DNA from: Escherichia coli
GTDB taxonomy: Bacteria > Pseudomonadota > Gammaproteobacteria > Enterobacterales > Enterobacteriaceae
Length of the DNA stretch: 64,000 bases
Assembly: GCF_003334335.1 (NCBI RefSeq)
Contig: NZ_QOWQ01000014.1
Reading direction: 5' to 3' (one strand)
In this document: positions 8,493 through 22,240 of the stretch, piece after piece
Numbering within the stretch: position 1 is the stretch's first letter
Layout of the letters: each line of letters begins with the position of its first letter
Position numbers and translations under genes: made by a program
Notes under the pieces: generated by a model
Told to the model about the DNA's origin: nothing
The model's database searches: none
Seen by the model: the letters and a program-made list of their open reading frames with translations, nothing else

Positions 8493-8770
8493 ATAAAAAA
8501 TAGCCCTGCAATGTAAATGGTTCTTTGGTGTTTTTCAGAAAGAATGTGATGAAGTGAAAAATTTGCATCACAAACCTGAAAAGAAATCCGTTTCCGGTTG
8601 CAAGCTCTTTATTCTCCAAAGCCTTGCGTAGCCTGAAGGTAATCGTTTGCGTAAATTCCTTTGTCAAGACCTGTTATCGCACAATGATTCGGTTATACTG
8701 TTCGCCGTTGTCCAACAGGACCGCCTATAAAGGCCAAAAATTTTATTGTTAGCTGAGTCAGGAGATGCGG

Positions 8771-10024
8771 ATGTTAAAGCGTGAAATGAACATTGCCGAT
8801 TATGATGCCGAACTGTGGCAGGCTATGGAGCAGGAAAAAGTACGTCAGGAAGAGCACATCGAACTGATCGCCTCCGAAAACTACACCAGCCCGCGCGTAA
8901 TGCAGGCGCAGGGTTCTCAGCTGACCAACAAATATGCTGAAGGTTATCCGGGCAAACGCTACTACGGCGGTTGCGAGTATGTTGATATCGTTGAACAACT
9001 GGCGATCGATCGTGCGAAAGAACTGTTCGGCGCTGACTACGCTAACGTCCAGCCGCACTCCGGCTCCCAGGCTAACTTTGCGGTCTACACCGCGCTGCTG
9101 GAACCAGGTGATACCGTTCTGGGTATGAACCTGGCGCATGGCGGTCACCTGACTCACGGTTCTCCGGTTAACTTCTCCGGTAAACTGTACAACATCGTTC
9201 CTTACGGTATCGATGCTACCGGTCATATCGACTACGCCGATCTGGAAAAACAAGCCAAAGAACACAAGCCGAAAATGATTATCGGTGGTTTCTCTGCATA
9301 TTCCGGCGTGGTGGACTGGGCGAAAATGCGTGAAATCGCTGACAGCATCGGTGCTTACCTGTTCGTTGATATGGCGCACGTTGCGGGCCTGGTTGCTGCT
9401 GGCGTCTACCCGAACCCGGTTCCTCATGCTCACGTTGTTACTACCACCACTCACAAAACCCTGGCGGGTCCGCGCGGCGGCCTGATCCTGGCGAAAGGTG
9501 GTAGCGAAGAGCTGTACAAAAAACTGAACTCTGCCGTTTTCCCTGGTGGTCAGGGCGGTCCGTTGATGCACGTAATCGCCGGTAAAGCGGTTGCTCTGAA
9601 AGAAGCGATGGAGCCTGAGTTCAAAACTTACCAGCAGCAGGTCGCTAAAAACGCTAAAGCGATGGTAGAAGTGTTCCTCGAGCGCGGCTACAAAGTGGTT
9701 TCCGGCGGCACTGATAACCACCTGTTCCTGGTTGATCTGGTTGATAAAAACCTGACCGGTAAAGAAGCAGACGCCGCTCTGGGCCGTGCTAACATCACCG
9801 TCAACAAAAACAGCGTACCGAACGATCCGAAGAGCCCGTTTGTGACCTCCGGTATTCGTGTAGGTACTCCGGCGATTACCCGTCGCGGCTTTAAAGAAGC
9901 CGAAGCGAAAGAACTGGCTGGCTGGATGTGTGACGTGCTGGACAGCATCAATGATGAAGCCGTTATCGAGCGCATCAAAGGTAAAGTTCTCGACATCTGC
10001 GCACGTTACCCGGTTTACGCATAA
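8771..10024 (+). CDS. glyA: serine hydroxymethyltransferase
   Basis: ORF track 8765..10024; start ATG 8771 preceded by GGAG (8761-8764); [23 protein letters not shown]...; PLP-lysine motif [14 protein letters not shown]. Confidence 0.95.
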
Positions 10025-10063
10025 GCGAAACGGTGATTTGCTGTCAATGTGCTCGTTGTTCAT

Positions 10064-10161
10064 GCCGGATGCGGCGTGAACGCCTTATCCGGCCTACAAA
10101 ACTTTGCAAATTCAATATATTGCAATCTCCGTGTAGGCCTGATAAGCGTAGCGCATCAGGC
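10064..10161. repeat. BIME (two inverted REP palindromes with spacer)
   Basis: gccggatgcggcgtgaacgccttatccggcctac ... gtaggcctgataagcgtagcgcatcaggc; near-identical to the cluster at 39121-39216. Confidence 0.8.
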
Positions 10162-10221
10162 AATTTTTCGTTTATGATCATCAAGGCTTCCTTCGGGAAG
10201 CCTTTCTACGTTATCGCGCCA

Positions 10222-11415
10222 TCAAATCTGTCGTAACTGCGCCTCAACATACAAATAGCCAATTCCCAGCACCTGTTGTGCGCGGCTTAATTGCCCAAAG
10301 CCAATTTGCGTCGCTTTCACGCTCGGTCCTTCGTCGCGGTCGAACGGGTTAAATCCTGTCTGGCGAATAATAGTATTAAGCCAGTTCTCACCAAAGGCAC
10401 AACTGCGACCGTACAACCAAATCTGATTAATATTGAGGATGTTGAGGAAGTTATACAGACTCAAACCAATGGCATTGGCAGAGCGATCAACCCAGCTGGT
10501 GATCCACGGTTCTCCACTTTGCCAGGCAGCGATTAACTGCGCTGTAGTCAGTTTTTCAGGATCAAGTTGAGTACTAACCGGTTGTGATTTTAGCCATACC
10601 CGCGCCTGTTTTTTTAATGCGCTTAACGAGGCGACGGTTTCCAGGCAGCCATAACGTCCACAGTCGCAGACGACGCCATCCGGATTAACGATGGTGTGAC
10701 CAATCTGTCCGCTACCATACAAACTGCCGCGATAAATTTGCTCGTTAATCACGAACGACGAGCCAATGCCGTAATCAACGTTGATCACGCAGAAATCCCG
10801 TTCCTGCGAATTATTTTGCCATTTCTCCGCCAGCGCCAGCATCACGCAGTCATTATCGACCATCACCCGAATGCCGAGCTTCTCTTCCAGCAGATATTTC
10901 ACCTCCACCGGCGTTGTCCACGGCGCTTGCGGCATGGTTTGCGACACGCCGGTCACAGGATCAACCTGACCGTGGATTGCCAACGCCAGGTTGATGGTAT
11001 GGTCCGGCCACAATTTACGGTGGCGATGCCAGCATTTTTCGATTTCGGACAGCAGCGCCTGCGGCGTCGGTGCATCAATCTGTAAATACTCAAATTCACC
11101 TTTCGGACTTAAACAAGCATTAGCAACCTGACACTCAATACTGGTGGGCGTCACGTTCAGGCACAGCGTCCAGTCACCTTCCGGCGCAATCAGCCATGTA
11201 CCGCTACTATGCCCGCGCGTCTGGCTTTCATCGTCAATATTCACCACCCGTTTTTCGCTTTCCAGTTCCTGCAAAATATTACTGACTGCCGGAATCGAAA
11301 TTTGCGCCAGCCGGGCCAGCGTTGATTTATTGGCGCGCTTTTGCCGGTACAGCAGTTCCAGAATCACGCATTTGTTATGGTGGCGAATCTGTTGATTATT
11401 AATGCAGGCTCTCAT
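10222..11415 (-). CDS. yphH: ROK-family (NagC/Mlc-like) transcriptional regulator, probable regulator of the divergent yph cluster
   Basis: ORF track 10222..11421 (-); first ATG is codon 3 (11413-11415); N-terminal HTH and C-terminal sugar-kinase-like ROK fold with Zn-binding C..C.C motif (CDCGRYGC). Confidence 0.85.
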   Translation of the reverse strand: MRACINNQQIRHHNKCVILELLYRQKRANKSTLARLAQISIPAVSNILQELESEKRVVNIDDESQTRGHSSGTWLIAPEGDWTLCLNVTPTSIECQVANACLSPKGEFEYLQIDAPTPQALLSEIEKCWHRHRKLWPDHTINLALAIHGQVDPVTGVSQTMPQAPWTTPVEVKYLLEEKLGIRVMVDNDCVMLALAEKWQNNSQERDFCVINVDYGIGSSFVINEQIYRGSLYGSGQIGHTIVNPDGVVCDCGRYGCLETVASLSALKKQARVWLKSQPVSTQLDPEKLTTAQLIAAWQSGEPWITSWVDRSANAIGLSLYNFLNILNINQIWLYGRSCAFGENWLNTIIRQTGFNPFDRDEGPSVKATQIGFGQLSRAQQVLGIGYLYVEAQLRQI

Positions 11416-11532
11416 CTTCACTAAACCTTGTTTAGTTAATTGCGTGATTATTCCGCGAAAACATTGCCAGATTGTTCAATACACTGCCACAAATCTTTTA
11501 ATTCAGTATGTCTTGTTAATATTGAGGGCACC

Positions 11533-14500
11533 ATGACTCCAGTAAAAGTGTGGCAAGAGCGCGTTGAGATCCCGACCTATGAAACCGGGCCGCAGGATAT
11601 ACATCCCATGTTCCTGGAAAATCGCGTTTATCAGGGATCGTCCGGCGCGGTTTATCCCTACGGCGTGACCGATACGCTGAGCGAGCAGAAAACCCTGAAA
11701 TCCTGGCAGGCGGTGTGGCTGGAAAACGACTACATCAAAGTGATGATCCTGCCGGAACTGGGCGGTCGGGTGCATCGCGCGTGGGATAAAGTGAAACAGC
11801 GCGATTTTGTTTATCACAATGAAGTCATTAAACCTGCGCTGGTGGGGCTGCTGGGGCCGTGGATTTCCGGTGGGATTGAGTTTAACTGGCCGCAACATCA
11901 TCGCCCGACCACCTTTATGCCCGTTGATTTCACCCTCGAAGCCCATGAAGACGGTGCACAGACGGTGTGGGTAGGCGAAACGGAGCCGATGCATGGTTTA
12001 CAGGTGATGACAGGTTTCACCCTGCGCCCTGACCGGGCGGCGCTGGAAATCGCCAGCCGCGTCTATAACGGGAACGCCACGCCGCGTCATTTCTTGTGGT
12101 GGGCCAACCCGGCAGTGAAAGGGGGGGAAGGGCATCAGAGCGTCTTCCCGCCGGATGTAACGGCGGTGTTTGATCACGGCAAACGGGCCGTCTCCGCTTT
12201 CCCCATCGCTACCGGCACTTACTACAAAGTGGACTACTCCGCTGGAGTGGACATTTCTCGCTATAAAAATGTGCCTGTTCCAACCTCATATATGGCCGAA
12301 AAATCGCAGTACGATTTTGTCGGCGCGTGGTGTCACGATGAAGATGGCGGTTTGCTGCACGTTGCCAACCACCATATTGCGCCAGGTAAAAAACAGTGGA
12401 GTTGGGGACACAGTGAATTTGGCCAGGCGTGGGATAAGAGTCTGACCGACAATAACGGCCCGTATATCGAACTGATGACCGGTATTTTTGCCGATAACCA
12501 GCCCGATTTTACCTGGCTTGATGCTTACGAAGAGAAGCGTTTTGAGCAGTATTTCCTGCCTTATCATTCTTTGGGCATGGTGCAAAATGCCTCCCGCGAT
12601 GCGGTGATAAAACTCCAGCGTAGTAAGCGGGGGATTGAGTGGGGGCTGTATGCCATCTCTCCGTTGAACGGATACCGCCTGGCGATCCGCGAAATCGGTA
12701 AATGCAACGCGTTACTTGATGATGCCGTGGCACTGATGCCTGCGACCGCCATCCAGGGCGTGTTGCACGGTATCAATCCTGAAAGGCTGACCATTGAGCT
12801 CTCCGATGCCGACGGCAATATTGTACTGAGTTATCAGGAACATCAGCCGCAAGCGTTGCCGTTACCGGACGTCGCCAAAGCGCCACTGGCAGCACAAGAC
12901 ATTACCAGTACAGATGAAGCCTGGTTTATCGGTCAGCATCTGGAGCAATATCATCACGCCAGCCGTTCACCGTTCGATTACTACCTGCGCGGCGTGGCGC
13001 TGGACCCGCTGGATTATCGCTGTAACCTGGCGCTGGCGATGCTGGAATATAACCGCGCAGATTTCCCGCAAGCGGTGGCGTATGCCACTCAGGCTCTGAA
13101 ACGCGCACATTCGCTGAACAAAAATCCGCAGTGCGGACAGGCGAGTTTGATTCGCGCCAGTGCTTACGAACGTCAGGGACAATATCAACAAGCCGAAGAG
13201 GATTTCTGGCGTGCGGTCTGGAGCGGCAACAGCAAAGCCGGTGGCTATTATGGCCTGGCACGACTGGCGGCGCGTAATGGTAACTTCGACGCTGGTCTGG
13301 ATTTTTGCCAACAAAGTCTTCGCGCCTGCCCAACCAATCAGGAAGTGCTTTGCCTGCATAATCTGCTGCTGGTGTTAAGTGGTCGTCAGGACAACGCGCG
13401 TGTGCAGCGCGAGAAACTGCTGCGCGATTATCCGCTGAACGCCACTCTGTGGTGGCTGAACTGGTTCGATGGTCGTAGCGAATCAGCTCTCGCGCAGTGG
13501 CGCGGTCTGTGTCAGGGACGCGACGTTAACGCCCTGATGACCGCCGGGCAACTGATTAACTGGGGAATGCCCACCCTGGCGGCAGAGATGCTGAACGCAC
13601 TGGACTGCCAGCGCACGCTGCCGCTTTACCTGCAAGCCAGCTTGCTGCCGAAAGCCGAACGTGGCGAACTGGTCGCAAAAGCCATTGATGTCTTCCCGCA
13701 GTTTGTCCGTTTCCCGAATACGCTGGAAGAAGTGGCGGCGCTGGAGAGTATTGAAGAGTGCTGGTTTGCTCGCCATTTACTAGCTTGCTTCTACTACAAC
13801 AAACGTAGCTACAACAAAGCCATTGCCTTTTGGCAACGTTGCGTAGAGATGTCGCCGGAGTTTGCCGACGGCTGGCGCGGGTTAGCGATCCATGCGTGGA
13901 ATAAGCAACACGATTATGAGCTGGCCGCGCGTTATCTTGATAATGCTTATCAGCTTGCGCCGCAGGATGCACGTCTGCTTTTCGAACGGGATTTGCTGGA
14001 TAAGTTAAGTGGAGCCACACCGGAGAAACGACTGGCGCGTCTGGAAAATAATCTGGAAATTGCGCTGAAACGCGACGACATGACCGCAGAACTGCTCAAT
14101 TTGTGGCATCTCACGGGTCAGGCAGACAAAGCGGCGGACATTCTCGCCACGCGCAAATTCCACCCGTGGGAAGGCGGGGAAGGGAAGGTCACCAGTCAGT
14201 TTATCCTCAACCAGTTATTACGCGCCTGGCAGCATCTTGATGCCAGACAGCCGCAGCAGGCCTGCGAACTGCTTCATGCCGCGCTGCATTATCCGGAGAA
14301 TTTAAGCGAAGGCCGTTTACCGGGGCAAACTGATAACGACATCTGGTTCTGGCAGGCGATATGCGCCAACGCGCAGGGCGATGAAACTGAAGCGACGCGT
14401 TGTTTACGTCTGGCGGCGACCGGCGATCGCACTATTAACATTCACAGTTATTACAACGATCAGCCGGTTGATTATCTCTTCTGGCAAGGGATGGCGCTGC

Positions 14501-14814
14501 GACTGCTGGGCGAACAACAAACCGCACAGCAACTGTTTAGTGAAATGAAACAGTGGGCGCAAGAGATGGCGAAAACCAGTATCGAAGCGGATTTCTTTGC
14601 CGTCTCGCAACCTGACTTGTTGTCGCTGTATGGCGATTTACAACAGCAGCATAAAGAAAAATGCCTGATGGTGGCGATGCTGGCGTCCGCGGGACTCGGG
14701 GAGGTTGCGCAATATGAGTCTGCTCGCGCTGAATTGACGGCGATTAATCCGGCTTGGCCGAAAGCGGCATTATTCACCACCGTGATGCCTTTTATTTTTA
14801 ACCGCGTTCACTAA
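11533..14814 (+). CDS. yphG: large (1093-aa) protein of unknown function, N-terminal beta-rich domain plus C-terminal TPR-like helical repeats
   Basis: ORF track 11440..14814; start taken at ATG 11533 (MTPVKVWQER...); divergent from yphH and followed by the ABC transporter genes. Confidence 0.85.
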   Translation: MTPVKVWQERVEIPTYETGPQDIHPMFLENRVYQGSSGAVYPYGVTDTLSEQKTLKSWQAVWLENDYIKVMILPELGGRVHRAWDKVKQRDFVYHNEVIKPALVGLLGPWISGGIEFNWPQHHRPTTFMPVDFTLEAHEDGAQTVWVGETEPMHGLQVMTGFTLRPDRAALEIASRVYNGNATPRHFLWWANPAVKGGEGHQSVFPPDVTAVFDHGKRAVSAFPIATGTYYKVDYSAGVDISRYKNVPVPTSYMAEKSQYDFVGAWCHDEDGGLLHVANHHIAPGKKQWSWGHSEFGQAWDKSLTDNNGPYIELMTGIFADNQPDFTWLDAYEEKRFEQYFLPYHSLGMVQNASRDAVIKLQRSKRGIEWGLYAISPLNGYRLAIREIGKCNALLDDAVALMPATAIQGVLHGINPERLTIELSDADGNIVLSYQEHQPQALPLPDVAKAPLAAQDITSTDEAWFIGQHLEQYHHASRSPFDYYLRGVALDPLDYRCNLALAMLEYNRADFPQAVAYATQALKRAHSLNKNPQCGQASLIRASAYERQGQYQQAEEDFWRAVWSGNSKAGGYYGLARLAARNGNFDAGLDFCQQSLRACPTNQEVLCLHNLLLVLSGRQDNARVQREKLLRDYPLNATLWWLNWFDGRSESALAQWRGLCQGRDVNALMTAGQLINWGMPTLAAEMLNALDCQRTLPLYLQASLLPKAERGELVAKAIDVFPQFVRFPNTLEEVAALESIEECWFARHLLACFYYNKRSYNKAIAFWQRCVEMSPEFADGWRGLAIHAWNKQHDYELAARYLDNAYQLAPQDARLLFERDLLDKLSGATPEKRLARLENNLEIALKRDDMTAELLNLWHLTGQADKAADILATRKFHPWEGGEGKVTSQFILNQLLRAWQHLDARQPQQACELLHAALHYPENLSEGRLPGQTDNDIWFWQAICANAQGDETEATRCLRLAATGDRTINIHSYYNDQPVDYLFWQGMALRLLGEQQTAQQLFSEMKQWAQEMAKTSIEADFFAVSQPDLLSLYGDLQQQHKEKCLMVAMLASAGLGEVAQYESARAELTAINPAWPKAALFTTVMPFIFNRVH

Positions 14815-14910
14815 ACCCTATTAACTGTAATATTTGAGCGGCACGCGCTGCCGCTCATCACAAAATAATTAGAATAAGCCGTTGTTAATAAAAACCCTAC
14901 AGGAGGCTCT

Positions 14911-15894
14911 ATGCCTACAAAAATGAGAACAACCCGTAATCTATTATTAATGGCTACGCTATTAGGTAGCGCACTATTTGCCAGGGCTGCGGAAAAAGAA
15001 ATGACCATTGGCGCAATATACCTTGATACTCAGGGATACTACGCTGGAGTGCGTCAGGGCGTTCAGGATGCGGCAAAAGATTCCTCAGTACAAGTTCAGT
15101 TAATAGAAACTAACGCCCAGGGTGATATTTCGAAAGAAAGTACCTTTGTTGATACCCTCGTGGCGCGTAATGTCGATGCCATTATTTTATCGGCAGTGTC
15201 TGAAAATGGCAGTAGCCGTACCGTTCGTCGCGCCAGTGAAGCGGGCATTCCGGTGATTTGCTACAACACCTGTATTAATCAAAAGGGGGTCGATAAATAT
15301 GTCTCGGCGTATCTGGTCGGCGATCCGCTGGAATTTGGTAAAAAACTGGGTAACGCTGCCGCTGATTATTTTATTGCCAATAAAATTGACCAGCCGAAAA
15401 TTGCCGTCATCAATTGCGAAGCCTTTGAAGTTTGTGTGCAGCGACGTAAAGGATTTGAAGAAGTTTTAAAATCCCGCGTTCCCGGCGCGCAAATTGTCGC
15501 TAATCAGGAAGGGACTGTTTTAGATAAAGCGATTTCCGTTGGTGAAAAACTAATTATCTCCACGCCGGATCTCAACGCCATTATGGGGGAATCGGGCGGT
15601 GCGACACTCGGCGCGGTAAAAGCGGTACGTAATCAAAATCAGGCCGGAAAAATTGCTGTTTTCGGTTCGGATATGACAACCGAAATTGCTCAGGAGCTGG
15701 AAAACAATCAGGTGCTGAAAGCGGTAGTGGATATTTCCGGTAAGAAAATGGGCAATGCTGTTTTCGCGCAAACATTGAAGGTTATCAATAAACAAGCCGA
15801 CGGTGAAAAAGTGATTCAGGTGCCTATCGATCTCTATACCAAAACGGAAGACGGTAAACAGTGGCTGGCAACGCACGTTGATGGTCTGCCCTAA
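14911..15894 (+). CDS. yphF: periplasmic sugar-binding protein of an ABC transporter
   Basis: AGGAGG RBS at 14901-14906; cleavable signal peptide; ribose-binding-protein-like fold by sequence character. Confidence 0.9.
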   Translation: MPTKMRTTRNLLLMATLLGSALFARAAEKEMTIGAIYLDTQGYYAGVRQGVQDAAKDSSVQVQLIETNAQGDISKESTFVDTLVARNVDAIILSAVSENGSSRTVRRASEAGIPVICYNTCINQKGVDKYVSAYLVGDPLEFGKKLGNAAADYFIANKIDQPKIAVINCEAFEVCVQRRKGFEEVLKSRVPGAQIVANQEGTVLDKAISVGEKLIISTPDLNAIMGESGGATLGAVKAVRNQNQAGKIAVFGSDMTTEIAQELENNQVLKAVVDISGKKMGNAVFAQTLKVINKQADGEKVIQVPIDLYTKTEDGKQWLATHVDGLP

Positions 15895-15916
15895 TCGCTG
15901 ATTCGCAGAGGTCCCT

Positions 15917-17428
15917 ATGTTCACGGCAACAGAGGCAGTCCCGGTAGCAAAAGTGGTGGCAGGAAATAAGCGTTATCCCGGCGTCGTTGCGCTGGATAAC
16001 GTTAACTTCACGCTCAATAAAGGCGAAGTTCGTGCGCTGTTAGGTAAAAACGGCGCGGGCAAATCGACTCTCATTCGAATGCTTACCGGCAGCGAACGCC
16101 CGGATAGCGGTGATATCTGGATTGGCGAGACGCGACTGGAAGGTGACGAAGCTACGCTGACTCGCCGTGCCGCTGAACTGGGGGTGCGCGCGGTTTATCA
16201 GGAGTTAAGTCTGGTGGAAGGGCTGACAGTGGCGGAAAACCTCTGCCTCGGTCAGTGGCCCCGCCGCAACGGCATGATTGATTACCTGCAAATGGCGCAG
16301 GATGCCCAACGTTGCTTACAGGCGCTGGGCGTTGACGTTAGTCCTGAACAACTTGTTTCAACGCTAAGCCCGGCGCAAAAGCAGCTGGTGGAAATTGCGC
16401 GGGTGATGAAGGGCGAGCCGCGCGTGGTCATTCTTGATGAACCTACCAGTTCGCTTGCGAGTGCGGAAGTTGAACTGGTGATCAGCGCGGTGAAAAAGAT
16501 GTCGGCACTGGGCGTGGCGGTGATTTATGTCAGCCACCGGATGGAAGAAATTCGCCGCATTGCCTCCTGTGCCACCGTTATGCGCGATGGTCAGGTGGCG
16601 GGCGATGTGATGCTCGAAAACACCTCCACGCATCATATTGTGTCGCTGATGCTCGGGCGCGATCACGTTGATATTGCGCCGGTAGCCCCTCAGGAAATTG
16701 TGGATCAGGCCGTGCTGGAAGTCCGTGCGTTACGCCATAAGCCCAAGCTGGAGGATATCAGTTTTACGCTACGTCGTGGCGAAGTGCTCGGCATTGCTGG
16801 TCTGCTGGGGGCAGGGCGCAGTGAATTGCTGAAGGCGATTGTTGGGCTGGAGGAGTATGAACAGGGCGAAATTGTTATCAACGGCGAGAAAATCACGCGC
16901 CCCGATTACGGCGACATGCTGAAACGCGGCATTGGCTATACGCCAGAAAACCGCAAAGAAGCGGGGATCATTCCCTGGTTGGGCGTTGACGAAAATACAG
17001 TGCTGACCAATCGGCAAAAAATCAGCGCCAACGGTGTGCTGCAATGGTCCACCATCCGCCGCCTGACCGAAGAGGTGATGCAGCGGATGACGGTCAAGGC
17101 CGCCAGTAGCGAAACACCCATCGGCACGCTTTCTGGTGGCAATCAGCAAAAAGTGGTGATCGGTCGTTGGGTCTATGCTGCCAGCCAGATTTTGTTGCTC
17201 GACGAGCCAACGCGCGGCGTCGATATCGAAGCCAAACAGCAGATTTACCGTATTGTCCGTGAGCTGGCTGCCGAAGGAAAAAGCGTGGTGTTTATCTCCA
17301 GTGAAGTGGAGGAGTTGCCGCTGGTGTGTGACCGCATCCTGTTATTACAGCACGGCACGTTCTCGCAGGAGTTTCACGCTCCGGTCAATGTGGATGAGCT
17401 GATGTCCGCCATTCTGTCTGTGCACTGA
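15917..17428 (+). CDS. yphE: ABC transporter ATP-binding protein with two fused nucleotide-binding domains
   Basis: Two Walker A motifs (GKNGAGKST and GLLGAGRSEL) and two signature motifs (LSPAQKQL, LSGGNQQK). Confidence 0.9.
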   Translation: MFTATEAVPVAKVVAGNKRYPGVVALDNVNFTLNKGEVRALLGKNGAGKSTLIRMLTGSERPDSGDIWIGETRLEGDEATLTRRAAELGVRAVYQELSLVEGLTVAENLCLGQWPRRNGMIDYLQMAQDAQRCLQALGVDVSPEQLVSTLSPAQKQLVEIARVMKGEPRVVILDEPTSSLASAEVELVISAVKKMSALGVAVIYVSHRMEEIRRIASCATVMRDGQVAGDVMLENTSTHHIVSLMLGRDHVDIAPVAPQEIVDQAVLEVRALRHKPKLEDISFTLRRGEVLGIAGLLGAGRSELLKAIVGLEEYEQGEIVINGEKITRPDYGDMLKRGIGYTPENRKEAGIIPWLGVDENTVLTNRQKISANGVLQWSTIRRLTEEVMQRMTVKAASSETPIGTLSGGNQQKVVIGRWVYAASQILLLDEPTRGVDIEAKQQIYRIVRELAAEGKSVVFISSEVEELPLVCDRILLLQHGTFSQEFHAPVNVDELMSAILSVH

Positions 17429-17452
17429 TGAATTTTACCGAGGAACCTGAAG

Positions 17453-18451
17453 ATGTCTGCTTCGTCATTACCATTGCCGCAGGGCAAGAGCGTCTCGCTC
17501 AAACAATTTGTCAGTCGCCATATTAATGAGATCGGTTTGCTGGTGGTGATTGCCATTCTTTATCTGGTCTTCTCCCTGAACGCGCCTGGCTTTATCTCAT
17601 TGAATAACCAGATGAACGTGCTGCGCGATGCCGCCACCATTGGGATTGCCGCCTGGGCGATGACGCTGATTATTATCTCCGGTGAAATTGATGTCAGCGT
17701 TGGGCCGATGGTGGCTTTTGTCTCGGTGTGCCTGGCATTTTTGCTGCAATTTGAAGTTCCGCTGGCGGTGGCGTGCCTGCTGGTGTTGCTGTTAGGCGCG
17801 CTGATGGGAACGCTGGCCGGGGTGCTGCGCGGCGTGTTTAATGTACCAAGTTTCGTTGCCACACTGGGGCTGTGGAGCGCCCTGCGCGGAATGGGGCTGT
17901 TTATGACGAACGCACTGCCAGTGCCGATTGATGAAAACGAGGTGCTGGACTGGCTGGGCGGACAATTTCTCGGTGTGCCGGTATCCGCGCTGATCATGAT
18001 TGTGTTGTTTGCGCTGTTTGTGTTCATCAGCCGCAAAACCGCCTTCGGGCGCTCGGTTTTTGCCGTTGGCGGTAATGCTACGGCGGCGCAGTTGTGCGGC
18101 ATCAACGTTCGTCGGGTGCGCATTCTTATCTTTACCCTTTCGGGATTATTAGCGGCGGTGACCGGCATTTTGTTGGCGGCGCGCCTCAGTTCTGGTAACG
18201 CAGGTGCCGCAAACGGTCTGGAGTTTGACGTCATCGCCGCGGTCGTGGTCGGCGGTACGGCACTTTCCGGCGGTCGCGGTTCCCTGTTCGGTACATTGCT
18301 TGGTGTGCTGGTGATTACGCTAATCGGTAACGGTCTGGTGCTGCTCGGTATTAACTCCTTTTTCCAGCAGGTGGTACGCGGCGTCATCATCGTGGTGGCG
18401 GTGCTGGCGAATATCTTGCTGACCCAGCGAAGCAGTAAAGCGAAACGCTAA
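17453..18451 (+). CDS. yphD: ABC transporter permease (ribose/monosaccharide-type)
   Basis: 332-aa polytopic hydrophobic protein directly downstream of yphE. Confidence 0.9.
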   Translation: MSASSLPLPQGKSVSLKQFVSRHINEIGLLVVIAILYLVFSLNAPGFISLNNQMNVLRDAATIGIAAWAMTLIIISGEIDVSVGPMVAFVSVCLAFLLQFEVPLAVACLLVLLLGALMGTLAGVLRGVFNVPSFVATLGLWSALRGMGLFMTNALPVPIDENEVLDWLGGQFLGVPVSALIMIVLFALFVFISRKTAFGRSVFAVGGNATAAQLCGINVRRVRILIFTLSGLLAAVTGILLAARLSSGNAGAANGLEFDVIAAVVVGGTALSGGRGSLFGTLLGVLVITLIGNGLVLLGINSFFQQVVRGVIIVVAVLANILLTQRSSKAKR

Positions 18452-18516
18452 ACCTTAACGCCCCTGGCGCGGGTGCGGCAGGGATGAAAATTAATCGTAT
18501 TGTTAATGAGGGATTT

Positions 18517-19578
18517 ATGAAAACGATGCTGGCAGCTTATTTACCAGGAAATTCGACCGTCGATCTGCGGGAAGTTGCGGTGCCGACGCCGGGGATTAAC
18601 CAGGTACTGATCAAAATGAAATCCTCCGGGATTTGCGGAAGCGATGTCCACTATATCTATCATCAACACCGTGCCACAGCGGCGGCACCCGATAAACCGT
18701 TATACCAGGGCTTTATCAACGGTCATGAACCGTGCGGGCAGATTGTGGCGATGGGGCAAGGCTGCCGCCATTTTAAAGAGGGCGACCGCGTGCTGGTGTA
18801 TCACATTTCTGGCTGTGGTTTTTGCCCGAACTGCCGTCGCGGTTTTCCTATTTCTTGTACTGGCGAAGGAAAAGCGGCTTACGGCTGGCAGCGTGACGGC
18901 GGTCATGCCGAATACTTGCTGGCGGAAGAAAAAGATCTGATCCTCCTGCCGGATGCGCTGAGCTACGAAGATGGTGCGTTTATCAGTTGCGGCGTTGGTA
19001 CAGCGTATGAAGGAATTTTGCGCGGCGAAGTTTCCGGCAGTGATAACGTGCTGGTGGTCGGTCTGGGGCCAGTCGGCATGATGGCGATGATGCTGGCGAA
19101 AGGTCGCGGTGCAAAACGGATCATCGGCGTTGATATGCTGCCGGAACGTCTGGCGATGGCAAAACAGTTAGGGGTGATGGATCACGGCTATTTAGCAACC
19201 ACCGAAGGTCTGCCGCAGATTATCGCCGAACTCACCCACGGTGGCGCGGATGTTGCGCTCGATTGTTCCGGTAATGCCGCAGGTCGCTTGCTGGCACTGC
19301 AATCCACCGCTGACTGGGGACGGGTGGTTTACATTGGTGAAACCGGAAAAGTGGAATTCGAGGTCAGCGCCGATCTGATGCACCATCAACGGCGGATTAT
19401 CGGCTCCTGGGTGACCAGTCTGTTCCATATGGAAAAATGCGCCCATGATCTGACGGACTGGAAGCTGTGGCCGCGTAACGCCATTACCCATCGCTTCTCG
19501 CTGGAACAGGCAGGTGATGCCTATGCGCTGATGGCGAGCGGCAAATGCGGGAAAGTTGTGATTAACTTCCCGGATTAA
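18517..19578 (+). CDS. yphC: Zn-dependent alcohol/polyol dehydrogenase (MDR family)
   Basis: ORF track 18484..19578; start ATG 18517 after GAGGG; catalytic Zn motif GHEPCGQIV and structural Zn cysteines CGFCPNCRRG. Confidence 0.85.
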   Translation: MKTMLAAYLPGNSTVDLREVAVPTPGINQVLIKMKSSGICGSDVHYIYHQHRATAAAPDKPLYQGFINGHEPCGQIVAMGQGCRHFKEGDRVLVYHISGCGFCPNCRRGFPISCTGEGKAAYGWQRDGGHAEYLLAEEKDLILLPDALSYEDGAFISCGVGTAYEGILRGEVSGSDNVLVVGLGPVGMMAMMLAKGRGAKRIIGVDMLPERLAMAKQLGVMDHGYLATTEGLPQIIAELTHGGADVALDCSGNAAGRLLALQSTADWGRVVYIGETGKVEFEVSADLMHHQRRIIGSWVTSLFHMEKCAHDLTDWKLWPRNAITHRFSLEQAGDAYALMASGKCGKVVINFPD

Positions 19579-19589
19579 GGAGTTAGCGG

Positions 19590-20462
19590 ATGACCATCTA
19601 TACCTTATCCCACGGGTCGCTAAAGCTGGACGTTTCTGACCAGGGCGGCGTAATCGAAGGCTTCTGGCGCGATACGACGCCGCTCTTACGTCCTGGTAAA
19701 AAAAGCGGTGTGGCAACCGATGCCTCATGTTTTCCGCTGGTGCCATTTGCAAACCGGGTGAGCGGCAATCGTTTTGTCTGGCAGGGGCGTGAGTATCAAC
19801 TGCAACCGAATGTTGAGTGGGATGCGCACTATCTACACGGCGATGGCTGGCTGGGCGAGTGGCAATGTGTCTCGCACAGCGATGATAGTTTGTGTCTGGT
19901 GTATGAACATCGCAGCGGTGTCTATCACTATCGGGTAAGTCAGGCGTTTCATTTAACGGCGGATACGCTGACGGTGACGCTCTCTGTCACCAATCAAGGG
20001 GCAGAGACGCTGCCATTTGGTACCGGCTGGCATCCTTATTTTCCGTTGTCGCCGCAAACGCGGATTCAGGCACAGGCGAGCGGTTACTGGCTGGAGCGGG
20101 AGCAGTGGCTGGCGGGTGAGTTTTGCGAGCAGCTACCGCAGGAACTGGATTTTAACCAGCCCGCGCCGTTGCCGCGCCAGTGGGTGAACAATGGTTTTGC
20201 CGGATGGAATGGTCAGGCCCGCATCGAGCAGCCGCAGGAAGGTTATGCCATCATCATGGAAACGACGCCACCTGCACCGTGTTATTTCATCTTTGTTTCC
20301 GACCCTGCGTTTGATAAAGGATATGCGTTTGATTTCTTCTGTCTGGAACCGATGAGCCATGCGCCGGATGATCATCATCGCCCGGAAGGGGGTGATCTCA
20401 TTGCGCTAGCACCAGGGGAATCAACAACTTCAGAGATGTCGTTGCGGGTAGAGTGGCTGTAA
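19590..20462 (+). CDS. yphB: aldose 1-epimerase (mutarotase)-like protein
   Basis: 290-aa ORF 12 nt after yphC; family assignment is from recognition of the YphB product, not from motif analysis. Confidence 0.85.
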   Translation: MTIYTLSHGSLKLDVSDQGGVIEGFWRDTTPLLRPGKKSGVATDASCFPLVPFANRVSGNRFVWQGREYQLQPNVEWDAHYLHGDGWLGEWQCVSHSDDSLCLVYEHRSGVYHYRVSQAFHLTADTLTVTLSVTNQGAETLPFGTGWHPYFPLSPQTRIQAQASGYWLEREQWLAGEFCEQLPQELDFNQPAPLPRQWVNNGFAGWNGQARIEQPQEGYAIIMETTPPAPCYFIFVSDPAFDKGYAFDFFCLEPMSHAPDDHHRPEGGDLIALAPGESTTSEMSLRVEWL

Positions 20463-20471
20463 TTTATTAAA

Positions 20472-20503
20472 TGCCGGATAAGGCGTTCACGCCGCATCCG
20501 GCA
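20472..20503. repeat. single REP palindrome
   Basis: tgccggataaggcgttcacgccgcatccggca between convergent yphB and yphA. Confidence 0.7.
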
Positions 20504-20509
20504 TCTTTC

Positions 20510-20932
20510 CTAACGCCGATCGAGAGAAATTGCCCCCGGCCCGGTAATTGCCAATAGCAAGAACGCGCCAGCGATACTGACATTCTTCCAGAAATTAATC
20601 ATATTTGGCCCAACCGCATCGCCGGTCATATCCCAGTAATGGTGACCAATCACCGCCGTACCCAGCGTGTAGAAAATAAACAGCACCGCCAGCGGACGGG
20701 TGAAAAAGCCAAGCACGATTAATATCGCGGCGGGCACTTCCATAACTACCGCAATAATCGCTGCCAGCATCGGCATTGGCGCGCCCAACGAGGCCATATA
20801 TTGGACCGTACCGTCAAAGCCCATCATTTTGGGAAAACCAAAAATAATGAAAATTAAGACCACGGCGATACGGGCAATTAATAACAAAACGGGGCGGGCA
20901 GCTCCAAAATCAAAATAACGTAGTGTGTTCAT
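20510..20932 (-). CDS. yphA: DoxX-family inner membrane protein
   Basis: ORF track 20510..21004 (-); start taken at the internal ATG 20930-20932 (MNTLRYFDF..., 140 aa); four predicted TM helices. Confidence 0.8.
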
Positions 20933-21028
20933 AACCAATCCCTTTGCAAGATAATGTGATTTAAACGTAATACACACTCTTGCACCTCGCCACGCCCCAG
21001 GCATTGAGATATTCGCTAATTATCCTGG

Positions 21029-22240
<1,212 letters not shown>

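Follow-up and report, generated by a model that had tools for sequence, protein, structure and literature searches.

The closest described systems to the yph locus are the CUT2 operons of E. coli (araFGH, mglBAC, rbsDACBK, alsBAC, and ytfQRT-yjfF), with which it shares a Peripla_BP-type binding protein, a fused two-domain ATPase, an RbsC/AraH-type permease, and changes that run in parallel under glucose limitation or when glucose transporters are lost. The sulfoquinovose operon, in which the YihR mutarotase feeds the YihS isomerase after the YihQ glycosidase, is likewise an E. coli y-gene sugar cluster with a dedicated mutarotase and an anomer-specific cofactor-free enzyme, and serves here as a 'works like' comparison only. 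The window that we analyzed is a 64,000-nucleotide stretch of the E. coli chromosome, whose yph part is 100% identical to that of E. coli NZ_AP022105, where RefSeq names the identical gene set. It carries the following features.

10222..11415, minus strand: yphH, ROK-family transcription regulator of 397 aa, divergent to the operon (ORF and RefSeq annotation)
11416..11532, no strand: yphH-yphG control region (alignment of intergenic regions)
11533..14814, plus strand: yphG, 1093-aa cytoplasmic protein with DUF5107 and TPR
14835..14857, plus strand: hairpin in the yphG-yphF spacer (sequence and fold)
14911..15894, plus strand: yphF, substrate-binding protein (periplasmic, signal peptide present) of an ABC importer for sugars of the CUT2 type
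15917..17428, plus strand: yphE, two-domain ABC ATPase (NCBIfam)
17453..18451, plus strand: yphD, single RbsC/AraH-type permease (NCBIfam)
18484..19578, plus strand: yphC, Zn-dependent medium-chain dehydrogenase (motifs, NCBIfam, and PDB)
19590..20462, plus strand: yphB, stand-alone aldose-1-epimerase-family protein (PDB 3NRE)
20510..20932, minus strand: yphA, DoxX-family membrane protein, a convergent neighbor (RefSeq annotation)

The ORFs and the RefSeq annotation place the minus-strand yphH opposite yphG-F-E-D-C-B within 10222-20462, as a preliminary description had proposed, and its protein families (ROK, sugar-binding protein, ABC ATPase, permease, Zn dehydrogenase, and mutarotase-like) are borne out by NCBIfam, Pfam, and PDB matches, as is the carbohydrate-type uptake locus by NCBIfam and PDB. 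The gaps of 12-32 nt that it gave for the whole cluster do not hold for yphG-yphF, which are 96 nt apart with a stable hairpin between them; those of yphF-E-D-C-B are 22, 24, 32, and 11 nt, in order. This hairpin has a 9-bp GC-rich stem (UGAGCGGCA-CGCGC-UGCCGCUCA, 14835-14857) and a fold of -22.1 kcal/mol (z -2.5); the sequence downstream of it has no U tract, and an Rfam search of it returned no match. Conceivably, it acts in partial termination or mRNA stability. yphG starts at the ATG at 11533 with a GAGG ribosome site, within a longest ORF that opens at a TTG at 11440, and the K-12 annotation uses an alternative start for yphC at 18517. It is doubtful that yphA belongs to the system; the gene accompanies the locus but stands outside the operon, and its orthologue in Klebsiella, Cedecea, and Enterobacter Ag1 lies on the opposite side, between glyA and the ROK gene.

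Of 5426 complete genomes, 5371 contain the yph locus, and its genes are under purifying selection and not decaying, with dN/dS values against E. albertii of 0.003-0.066 (YphC, the most constrained, 0.003; YphG, 0.054). In published work, the YphF protein has been detected, and YphF together with yphEF/yphF/yphG transcripts shifts along with other catabolite-derepressed sugar systems; upon glucose limitation or transporter loss, yph expression moves together with that of galP, galS, mglBAC, araFGH, rbs, and xyl. A silent operon with disrupted genes, named in the preliminary description as an outcome that would count against it, is at odds with these expression changes and selection values.

YphFED has the parts of a CUT2 sugar importer, namely a periplasmic type-I binding protein with a signal peptide (signal-like N-terminus MPTKMRTTRNLLLMATLLGSALFARA), a two-domain ATPase, and one permease. 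The top PDB match of YphF is 5hsg (1e-24), followed by ribose, allose, and galactofuranose binders, and these matches rule out an AraF-like or MglB-like protein. Its NCBIfam matches (AlsB, MglB, LsrB, RbsB, and YtfQ) are all far under their cut-offs, the best being AlsB at 64 versus 335. YphE aligns over its whole length with AraG, XylG, and RbsA, its NCBIfam order being AraG (456 bits versus a cut-off of 689), then XylG, AlsA, and MglA; YphD scores 229 bits for RbsC (cut-off 398) and 223 bits for AraH, also under its cut-off. Assignment to a CUT2 system of established substrate (Ara, Xyl, Mgl, Rbs, Als, Ytf, Lsr, or Rha) was rejected with every score below the equivalog cut-off. The G+C content of yphF (~0.47) is below that of neighboring genes, and among the loci studied, E. 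albertii and Enterobacter sp. BIGb0383 alone have orthologues of it.

YphC carries the hallmarks of a Zn-dependent medium-chain dehydrogenase, with catalytic zinc ligands (C-x-H-E), a structural-zinc Cys4, and a Rossmann GxGxxG, read from the motifs GICGSD, GHEPCG, CGFCPNC...C, GLGPVG, and GVD, and is probably NAD-dependent. Its PDB matches (1e-37 to 1e-28) are alcohol, xylitol, sorbitol, and threonine dehydrogenases. As a specific enzyme of the Tdh, IolM, GatD, IdnD, or YdjJ type it was rejected on the curated equivalog cut-offs; its best NCBIfam matches are Tdh (171 bits versus 380) and the scyllo-inosose 3-dehydrogenase IolM (169 versus 450), with GatD at 108 versus 550 and IdnD at 89 versus 469. 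YphB matches PDB 3NRE over its full length (E 5e-210) and, from its fold and the catalytic His/His/Glu motifs in LHGDGW, WHPYF, and LEP, classes as a PF01263 aldose 1-epimerase family protein. No yph gene product reaches a curated NCBIfam equivalog cut-off, and our full-text literature search found no substrate assigned to the yph genes or published for their proteins; a 2023 review still enters yphFED as 'Sugar / putative ABC transporter', in line with the earlier statement that the locus has no assigned substrate.

YphH has the ROK architecture (~400 aa) in NCBIfam and Pfam, in which an N-terminal DNA-binding domain is joined to a sugar-binding/kinase-like domain. It is a NagC/Mlc-like ROK protein that matches the NCBIfam Mlc model (residues 9-334) and NagC model (118-342) partially and far under the cut-offs, and it is a putative repressor that would leave an operator in the divergent promoter region upon binding a sugar. 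Its orthologues, 54-83% identical and carrying Pfam ROK with a weak MarR-type HTH, are divergent from an adjoining yphG in MFS-type and ABC-type loci alike. Aligning 13 intergenic regions from Escherichia to Aeromonas revealed an imperfect palindrome (ACTAAAC-CTT-GTTTAGT, 11420-11436), an invariant 9-mer (ATTGCGTGA, 11439-11447), and a conserved hexamer (TAnACT, 11480-11485) upstream of yphG. These are putative operator/promoter elements, the hexamer being a candidate -10 for yphG; a generic promoter scan of the control region gave no match and no overall enrichment.

YphG is the signature component of the module. Its gene is the first of the operon and adjoins this conserved control region. 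The protein begins with the DUF5107 domain, of mutarotase fold (1-345), which is followed by another beta domain (357-435) and by a solenoid of TPRs (460-1092). The structure model is confident, and its high pTM suggests that the solenoid packs in a fixed, intramolecular manner against the beta domains. The N-terminal domain, which Pfam places in DUF5107 and not in Aldose_epim, has the galactose-mutarotase-like beta supersandwich fold and resembles true mutarotases far more than it does the supersandwiches of GH or PL enzymes; profiles give no sequence-level link (hhalign DUF5107 versus PF01263, E 0.03-0.35). Polar residues are invariant or near-invariant both in the beta domain (E116, N118, H122, H123, R124, H215, K286, K287, D306, E313, N322, Q323, and D325) and in the TPR part (Q472, D491, R782, E818, and E880), and H122/H123, H215, and E313 are candidates for the mutarotase His/His/Glu. 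By sequence and by fold, we recognized no GH or PL catalytic domain, and the helices wind into a TPR superhelix instead of an (alpha/alpha)6 toroid. Signal peptides occur in ~22 of 111 full-length cluster representatives of the family, and such exported relatives retain the same conserved residues; two of them lie in SusC/SusD loci beside GH16 enzymes, one also beside sulfatases, and one relative bears a C-terminal CBM9 domain. The confident model, the conserved polar residues, and the exported, PUL-borne, and CBM9-fused relatives argue for a cofactor-independent carbohydrate-active role.

We compared the 5 kb neighborhoods of 83 YphG loci (17 gammaproteobacterial, 38 Bacteroidota, and 28 Bacillota), many of them contig fragments and 80 of them those closest to E. 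coli YphG. A transporter lies within this distance in 16/17, 31/38, and 6/28 of them, respectively, and an AraC or ROK regulator adjoins YphG in 62 of the 83. This comparison shows that what is conserved across three phyla is YphG together with a regulator and a transporter of monosaccharide type, the last varying between an MFS sugar porter, MelB, and an ABC system of the CUT2 class. The co-occurrence analysis suggested in the preliminary description came out in two parts: YphB accompanies YphG in Gammaproteobacteria, and only there (orthologues downstream of yphG or of the MFS porter in 15/17 loci), but YphFED and YphC are lineage-specific, being confined to E. coli, E. albertii, and one Enterobacter among the loci studied. 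In Aeromonas, Klebsiella oxytoca, Serratia, Rahnella, Citrobacter, Cedecea, and Hafnia, a ROK gene is divergent from YphG, followed by an MFS sugar porter and YphB, and these loci lack the ABC system and the dehydrogenase. The porter resembles XylE and is accepted by the model of the sugar-porter subfamily, and the K. oxytoca module occupies the same glyA-side position as the E. coli locus.

The neighbors of YphG are also indicative of the sugar class. AraF-like binding proteins adjoin it in locus L008 and three Bacillota loci (PDB 4kzk, 2e-95; E. coli arabinose-binding protein, 2e-79), an MglB-like one occurs in a Lachnospiraceae locus, and Citrobacter FP75 and Photobacterium carry a MelB equivalog (564 bits; cut-off, 456) accompanied by a GH36 or GH2 enzyme. 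In 32 of the 83 loci, the 5 kb neighborhood of YphG includes a GH2 (BT4151-like), GH35, GH36, or GH97 enzyme, and GH95, GH53, and GalM were also seen. The family is widespread, and in bacteria of gut and soil it adjoins galactosidases and transporters of the galactose/arabinose type. This evidence points to galacto-configured aldoses or galactosides, the galactosidase neighbors being an association and not the identity of the transported molecule. Since YphF is neither AraF-like nor MglB-like, E. coli may handle another substrate than the MFS-type loci do; a sugar alcohol is possible for the E. coli cassette but has no indication in the family-wide evidence.

The explanation that we favor, at somewhat less than an even chance, is that a catabolite-sensitive operon under ROK control takes up a small carbohydrate of galacto configuration and starts to process it in the cytoplasm, with YphG as key catalyst. 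The candidate substrates are monosaccharides of the L-arabinose/D-galactose/D-fucose type and very small galactosides. The evolutionary core of the operon would be YphH, YphG, YphB, and a monosaccharide-type transporter. The active center of YphG would lie in the mutarotase-fold domain, capped by conserved residues of the long TPR solenoid, and its chemistry would most likely start with ring opening at the anomeric (reducing-end) carbon; our guess at the outcome is an anomer/ring-form interconversion or an aldose-ketose or epimer conversion, for which YphB may provide or withdraw the required anomer. As a plain anomerase, YphG would be redundant, since the organisms that carry it possess GalM along with complete pathways for galactose and arabinose. 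In the lineage of E. coli and E. albertii, a cassette of YphFED and the NAD-dependent Zn dehydrogenase YphC may have replaced an ancestral XylE-like proton symporter, adding an oxidation/reduction step or widening entry to a related polyol.

The preliminary description had instead proposed that YphFED takes up, YphB epimerizes, and YphC oxidizes a sugar or sugar alcohol, which would leave YphG as an accessory or unrelated passenger. The tight yphF-E-D-C-B spacing after the hairpin gap would allow such a sub-unit, a Lachnospiraceae genome carries a similar cassette near YphG (binding protein, ATPase, permease, and Zn dehydrogenase(s)), and YphC is the most constrained gene. Nevertheless, most loci that keep YphH, YphG, and YphB do so without YphFED and YphC, the partner of YphB across Gammaproteobacteria is YphG and not YphC, and YphG is itself under purifying selection at the head of the operon; carbohydrate uptake stands, but the gene context speaks against YphC as the core step and YphG as a bystander, and we consider this pathway improbable. 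Even less probable is YphG as a non-enzymatic sugar-sensing scaffold, whose mutarotase-like domain would bind sugar and whose solenoid would bind the regulator or transporter, tuning induction or uptake: about one-fifth of the family representatives are exported, some in PULs or with CBM9, beyond the reach of any cytoplasmic regulator, the regulator switches between ROK and AraC as YphG stays constant, the conserved His, Glu, Asp, Arg, and Lys clusters are typical of catalysis, and the high pTM suggests a solenoid fixed within the molecule.

More serious, yet still unlikely, is that YphG is a new cytoplasmic glycoside-cleaving hydrolase or lyase acting on an imported small galactose-containing glycoside or disaccharide, with YphB or GalM mutarotating the freed aldose and, in E. 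coli, YphC oxidizing a polyol-type aglycone. The exported PUL members and the CBM9 fusion suit a glycan-cleaving enzyme at least equally well. However, the three transporter types and the AraF-like and MglB-like binders belong to monosaccharide classes, YphG matches no GH or PL catalytic domain, its N-terminal domain is nearer to true mutarotases, and its helices form a TPR superhelix instead of the toroid. Beyond the operon, we also put forward, with rather less than even confidence, that DUF5107-TPR proteins are a new carbohydrate-active enzyme family with a TPR-capped mutarotase-type site and a chemistry new to the fold, be it reducing-end isomerization/epimerization, furanose-pyranose conversion, reducing-end elimination, or a new glycoside cleavage, on galactan- or arabinogalactan-derived sugars. 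If true, the family would supply a step that has been missing from the use of galactosides by Bacteroidota, Bacillota, and Enterobacterales of the gut. E. coli YphG, its tractable representative, is the part of the locus most worth pursuing.

Set against the known systems, the E. coli CUT2 operons lack counterparts of YphG, YphC, and YphB, the yph components fall under their equivalog cut-offs, and the yph transporter is swapped for an MFS porter in sister lineages. In comparison with the PF01263 proteins GalM, YeaD, and YphB, YphG shows no detectable sequence-level membership, is 3-4x larger, has an extra beta domain and ~630 TPR residues with conserved polar residues, and co-occurs with bona fide mutarotases without replacing them. 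PDB 5CD6 (BDI_1685 of Parabacteroides distasonis, a structural-genomics 'TPR-domain containing protein') comprises only 575-580 residues and hence lacks the distal half of the solenoid; its entry carries no functional annotation. In the sulfoquinovose operon, YihS is an (alpha/alpha)6 isomerase and YihQ a GH31 enzyme, and YphG is unlike both. The supersandwich polysaccharide lyases (PL4, PL26, and PL40) have the mutarotase-like beta supersandwich in common with YphG and the PUL setting in common with the exported DUF5107 proteins.

The yph locus consists of yphH, which encodes a ROK-family regulator, and the divergent genes yphG to yphB. Its open reading frames were found where the preliminary description had placed them and match RefSeq genes, and its family labels for YphH to YphB are borne out by family and structure matches. 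The ORFs of the segment are as follows, with the convergent yphA and then the hca genes lying beyond yphB:

8765-10024, plus strand, glyA
10222-11415, minus strand, yphH
11533-14814, plus strand, yphG (ATG start with a GAGG ribosome site)
14911-15894, plus strand, yphF
15917-17428, plus strand, yphE
17453-18451, plus strand, yphD
18484-19578, plus strand, yphC
19590-20462, plus strand, yphB

Positions 10000-20700 of the window are 100% identical to E. coli strain WP5-S17-ESBL-10; the window is E. coli chromosome, and 5371 of 5426 complete E. coli genomes (99%) hold at least 80% of this segment in one place. From yphG to yphB the intergenic gaps are 96, 22, 24, 32, and 11 nt; the yphG-yphF spacer, which carries a hairpin, falls outside the 12-32 nt described at first. 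The dN/dS values against E. albertii range from 0.003 (yphC) to 0.066 (yphB), with 0.054 for yphG, so that selection on the genes is strongly purifying and a cryptic, decaying locus of pseudogenes is rejected. In E. coli SCPM-O-B-8794 (locus L010, 2379-5657), yphG is interrupted by a premature stop in codon 811. Two shorter YphG clusters of the protein collection (900 aa and 692 aa, more than 1000 members each) were drawn from fragmentary read assemblies, and contig truncation may account for their length. Among the neighboring genes, the mechanical ORF list alone gave a candidate 429-aa ORF antisense to all of glyA (8774-10063, minus strand). In the window, hcaD reads through intact over 400 aa (21029-22231); in WP5-S17-ESBL-10 (locus L001, 14030-15237), which otherwise looks identical, its annotation gives a frameshift and an internal stop, in a region outside the 10000-20700 covered by the strain comparison.

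None of the eight proteins of the locus reached an NCBIfam curated equivalog cut-off. Our full-text search of open-access papers (subscription journals could be missed) returned no functional study, and a 2023 review enters yphFED as "Sugar / putative ABC transporter", which agrees with the initial statement that no substrate has been assigned. YphB is the protein of structural-genomics entry 3NRE, and the only solved relative of YphG, 5CD6, is likewise a structural-genomics entry. In a microarray study, yphF and yphG change alongside galP, galS, mglABC, lamB, and rbs; in glucose-transporter mutants, yphEF are up with araFGH, xylFGH, rbsA, and ytfQRT; and YphF protein is 3-4.6-fold up on levoglucosan versus fructose, with XylF, MalE, MglA, and UgpB up too. 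Levoglucosan was considered as a specific inducer and set aside, because other binding-protein and transport systems rise likewise, and in our reading all three datasets reflect catabolite derepression and not a specific induction. The locus is expressed and, given these changes and the low dN/dS values, neither silent nor decaying.

Comparison with relatives separates a conserved core from a variable cassette. Full-length homologues close to YphG (54-60% identity) are encoded in Aeromonas, Klebsiella oxytoca, Serratia, and a Sodalis-like genome, and in all four the module is a ROK gene divergent from the genes for YphG, an MFS sugar porter, and a YphB-like epimerase; in K. oxytoca, as in E. 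coli, its position is on the glyA side. The MFS protein resembles XylE and satisfies the model for the sugar-porter subfamily. Among the loci studied, only those of E. coli, E. albertii, and Enterobacter sp. BIGb0383 combine YphG with YphFED and YphC, and therefore the E. coli lineage carries an ABC-plus-dehydrogenase cassette in the place of the proton symporter. One Lachnospiraceae genome has a comparable cassette a few kb away from YphG, with genes for an MglB-like binding protein, an ATPase, a permease, and two Zn dehydrogenases. The co-occurrence analysis thus displaces the ABC transporter and dehydrogenase from the core, since these are lineage-limited and YphG is kept. Of the proposed logic of uptake, epimerization, and oxidation, the carbohydrate character stands; what had been missed is YphG as the conserved, defining, and truly unknown part. 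Separately, in Klebsiella, Citrobacter, Cedecea, and Enterobacter, genes for a LacY-like MFS protein and a PRD-domain protein follow the YphB-like gene (L004/L005 15697-18104; also L015, L016, L020, and L022), a pair absent from E. coli.

The unusually long yphG-yphF spacer (96 nt) contains a 9-bp GC-rich hairpin (14835-14857, -22 kcal/mol, z -2.5) with no U run after it, and the G+C content of yphF is about 0.47 versus about 0.55 for its neighbors. These hints would fit a separate origin of the yphFEDC cassette. The yphH-yphG spacer (11416-11532) keeps three features from Escherichia to Aeromonas in an alignment of 13 genomes:

11420-11436, imperfect palindrome ACTAAAC-CTT-GTTTAGT
11439-11447, invariant 9-mer ATTGCGTGA
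11480-11485, hexamer TAnACT

The 9-mer resembles one half-site of a CRP site; the other half matches in none of the aligned species, and hence ATTGCGTGA is not called a CRP site. The promoter scan gave 9 promoter-like sites against 10 expected, hence no enrichment, and none in the control region; its terminator-like matches were all intragenic, and an Rfam search of 10000-21100 gave no match.

An exhaustive search of 1.84 billion representatives placed 1152 clusters at 50% identity in the YphG family (E < 1e-30), mostly of about 1100 aa with full-length matches. In a one-genome-per-species scan with at least about 600 YphG places, the best 80, which were analyzed, belong to Enterobacterales, Aeromonas, Photobacterium, many Bacteroidota (Mucilaginibacter, Sphingobacterium, Flavobacterium, Prevotella, Bacteroides, Muribaculaceae, and Zobellia), and Bacillota (Paenibacillus, Lachnospiraceae, and Oscillospiraceae). 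ORFs were called in every locus, clustered, and tallied.

Neighbors of YphG, by number of loci (lower value, within 5 kb of YphG; higher value, anywhere in the fetched locus)
AraC-type regulator, 46-48
ROK regulator, 16, Gammaproteobacteria only
XylE-like sugar porter, 43-44, in Bacteroidota directly upstream of YphG
CUT2 ABC ATPase, 10
MelB equivalog, 2
GH2 related to exo-beta-1,4-galactosidase BT4151, 23-25
GH35-like, 8
GH36-like, 6-8
GH97, 3-4
GH95, 4
GalM, 8
YphB, 15-16, Gammaproteobacteria only

Further neighbors include GH53, SGNH esterases, and, in marine Flavobacteriia, sulfatases; the pooled Pfam scan of unrelated neighbor proteins lists families without the carrier protein and shows their occurrence near YphG. 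In Bacteroidota loci, lipoprotein signal peptides are found on the GH2 enzymes and not on YphG or GalM. The binding protein adjoining ROK/YphG in L008 falls in the same cluster as the binding proteins adjoining AraC/YphG in three Bacillota loci, and is closely related to L-arabinose-binding protein (4kzk, 2e-95; E. coli ABP, 2e-79). An AraF-like binding protein of a Bacillota locus is encoded at 7772-8848 of L023. L-arabinose-binding protein also binds D-galactose and D-fucose. Together, these data make YphG the cytoplasmic partner of monosaccharide-type importers, in loci for the release or uptake of galacto-configured sugars. Three Bacteroidota loci of Mucilaginibacter and Chitinophaga (L024/L091 6350-8578, L067, and L070) encode, immediately upstream of MFS-YphG-GalM, a protein of about 740 aa that matches neither Pfam nor NCBIfam and may be a further uncharacterized component of the YphG system.

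YphG has no signal peptide. Its AlphaFold2 model (80-sequence alignment; pLDDT 95, pTM 0.93) has a beta sandwich over residues 1-345, another beta domain over 357-435, and 33 helices over 460-1092. Conserved polar positions of the beta domain are GGIEFNWPQHHRP (113-125), H215, K286-K287, W291, D306, E313, and NQPD (322-325), and those of the solenoid are Q472, D491, R782 (invariant), E818, and F-x-PWEGGEG (876-881); this pattern and the high pTM suggest that beta domain and solenoid may form one pocket. A profile comparison of the YphG family with the PF01263 families (YphB, GalM) gave nothing significant, and therefore the link to mutarotases is a structural one only. By a crude hydrophobicity rule, about 22 of 111 full-length cluster representatives have signal-peptide-like N-termini. 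Two of these belong to SusC/SusD loci with GH16 neighbors, joined in one case by sulfatases, and the distant exported proteins P0198 and P0258 carry an extra C-terminal domain, of the endonuclease/exonuclease/phosphatase (EEP) family in one and CBM9-like in the other; the contigs of P0258 and P0222, among the exported or fused homologues, are too short or unannotated for gene context. The residues conserved in YphG recur in the exported forms. An equation of GH173, the capybara-microbiome beta-galactosidase family, with DUF5107 proved wrong, as GH173 belongs to clan GH-A.

Most simply, YphG is a cofactor-independent carbohydrate-active enzyme, since the family has cytoplasmic and exported forms, occurs in glycan-degradation loci, and once carries a CBM9. 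The same facts speak against a purely regulatory scaffold, as the family acts inside and outside the cytoplasm. We tentatively favor ring opening at the anomeric carbon, leading to interconversion of anomers or ring forms or to isomerization or epimerization, because of the fold, the monosaccharide-type transporters, and the pairing with a conventional mutarotase; CBM9 modules bind reducing ends, which fits this chemistry. Cleavage of a small glycoside is somewhat less likely; in its favor are the PUL setting of the exported members and host organisms already equipped with GalM and with full pathways for galactose and arabinose. YphG may found a new class of carbohydrate-active enzyme, at somewhat less than an even chance.

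In a working model of the E. coli operon, YphH would probably repress the divergent promoters, and with glucose scarce and an inducer present YphFED would import the sugar, on whose anomeric centre YphB and YphG would work. YphC could perform an NAD-linked oxidation or reduction, a step that the MFS-type species do without, or alternatively admit a related polyol to the same route. The hairpin downstream of yphG could set unequal levels of YphG and the downstream proteins.

Among the E. coli core genes that still lack an assigned role, the yph cluster forms one of the larger blocks, and the comparison shifts attention from a generic transporter and dehydrogenase to YphG, whose family, with no member of known function, is frequent among gut and soil bacteria that degrade plant glycans. 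Should YphG prove to be an enzyme, its activity would close a gap in models of how galactan, arabinogalactan, or galactosides are broken down, and a new CAZy-type family might be defined; if it is a redundant mutarotase, the locus is ordinary. E. coli genetics offers the means to identify its function. In essence, the yph operon is of a familiar type, and the enzyme family of YphG is not.
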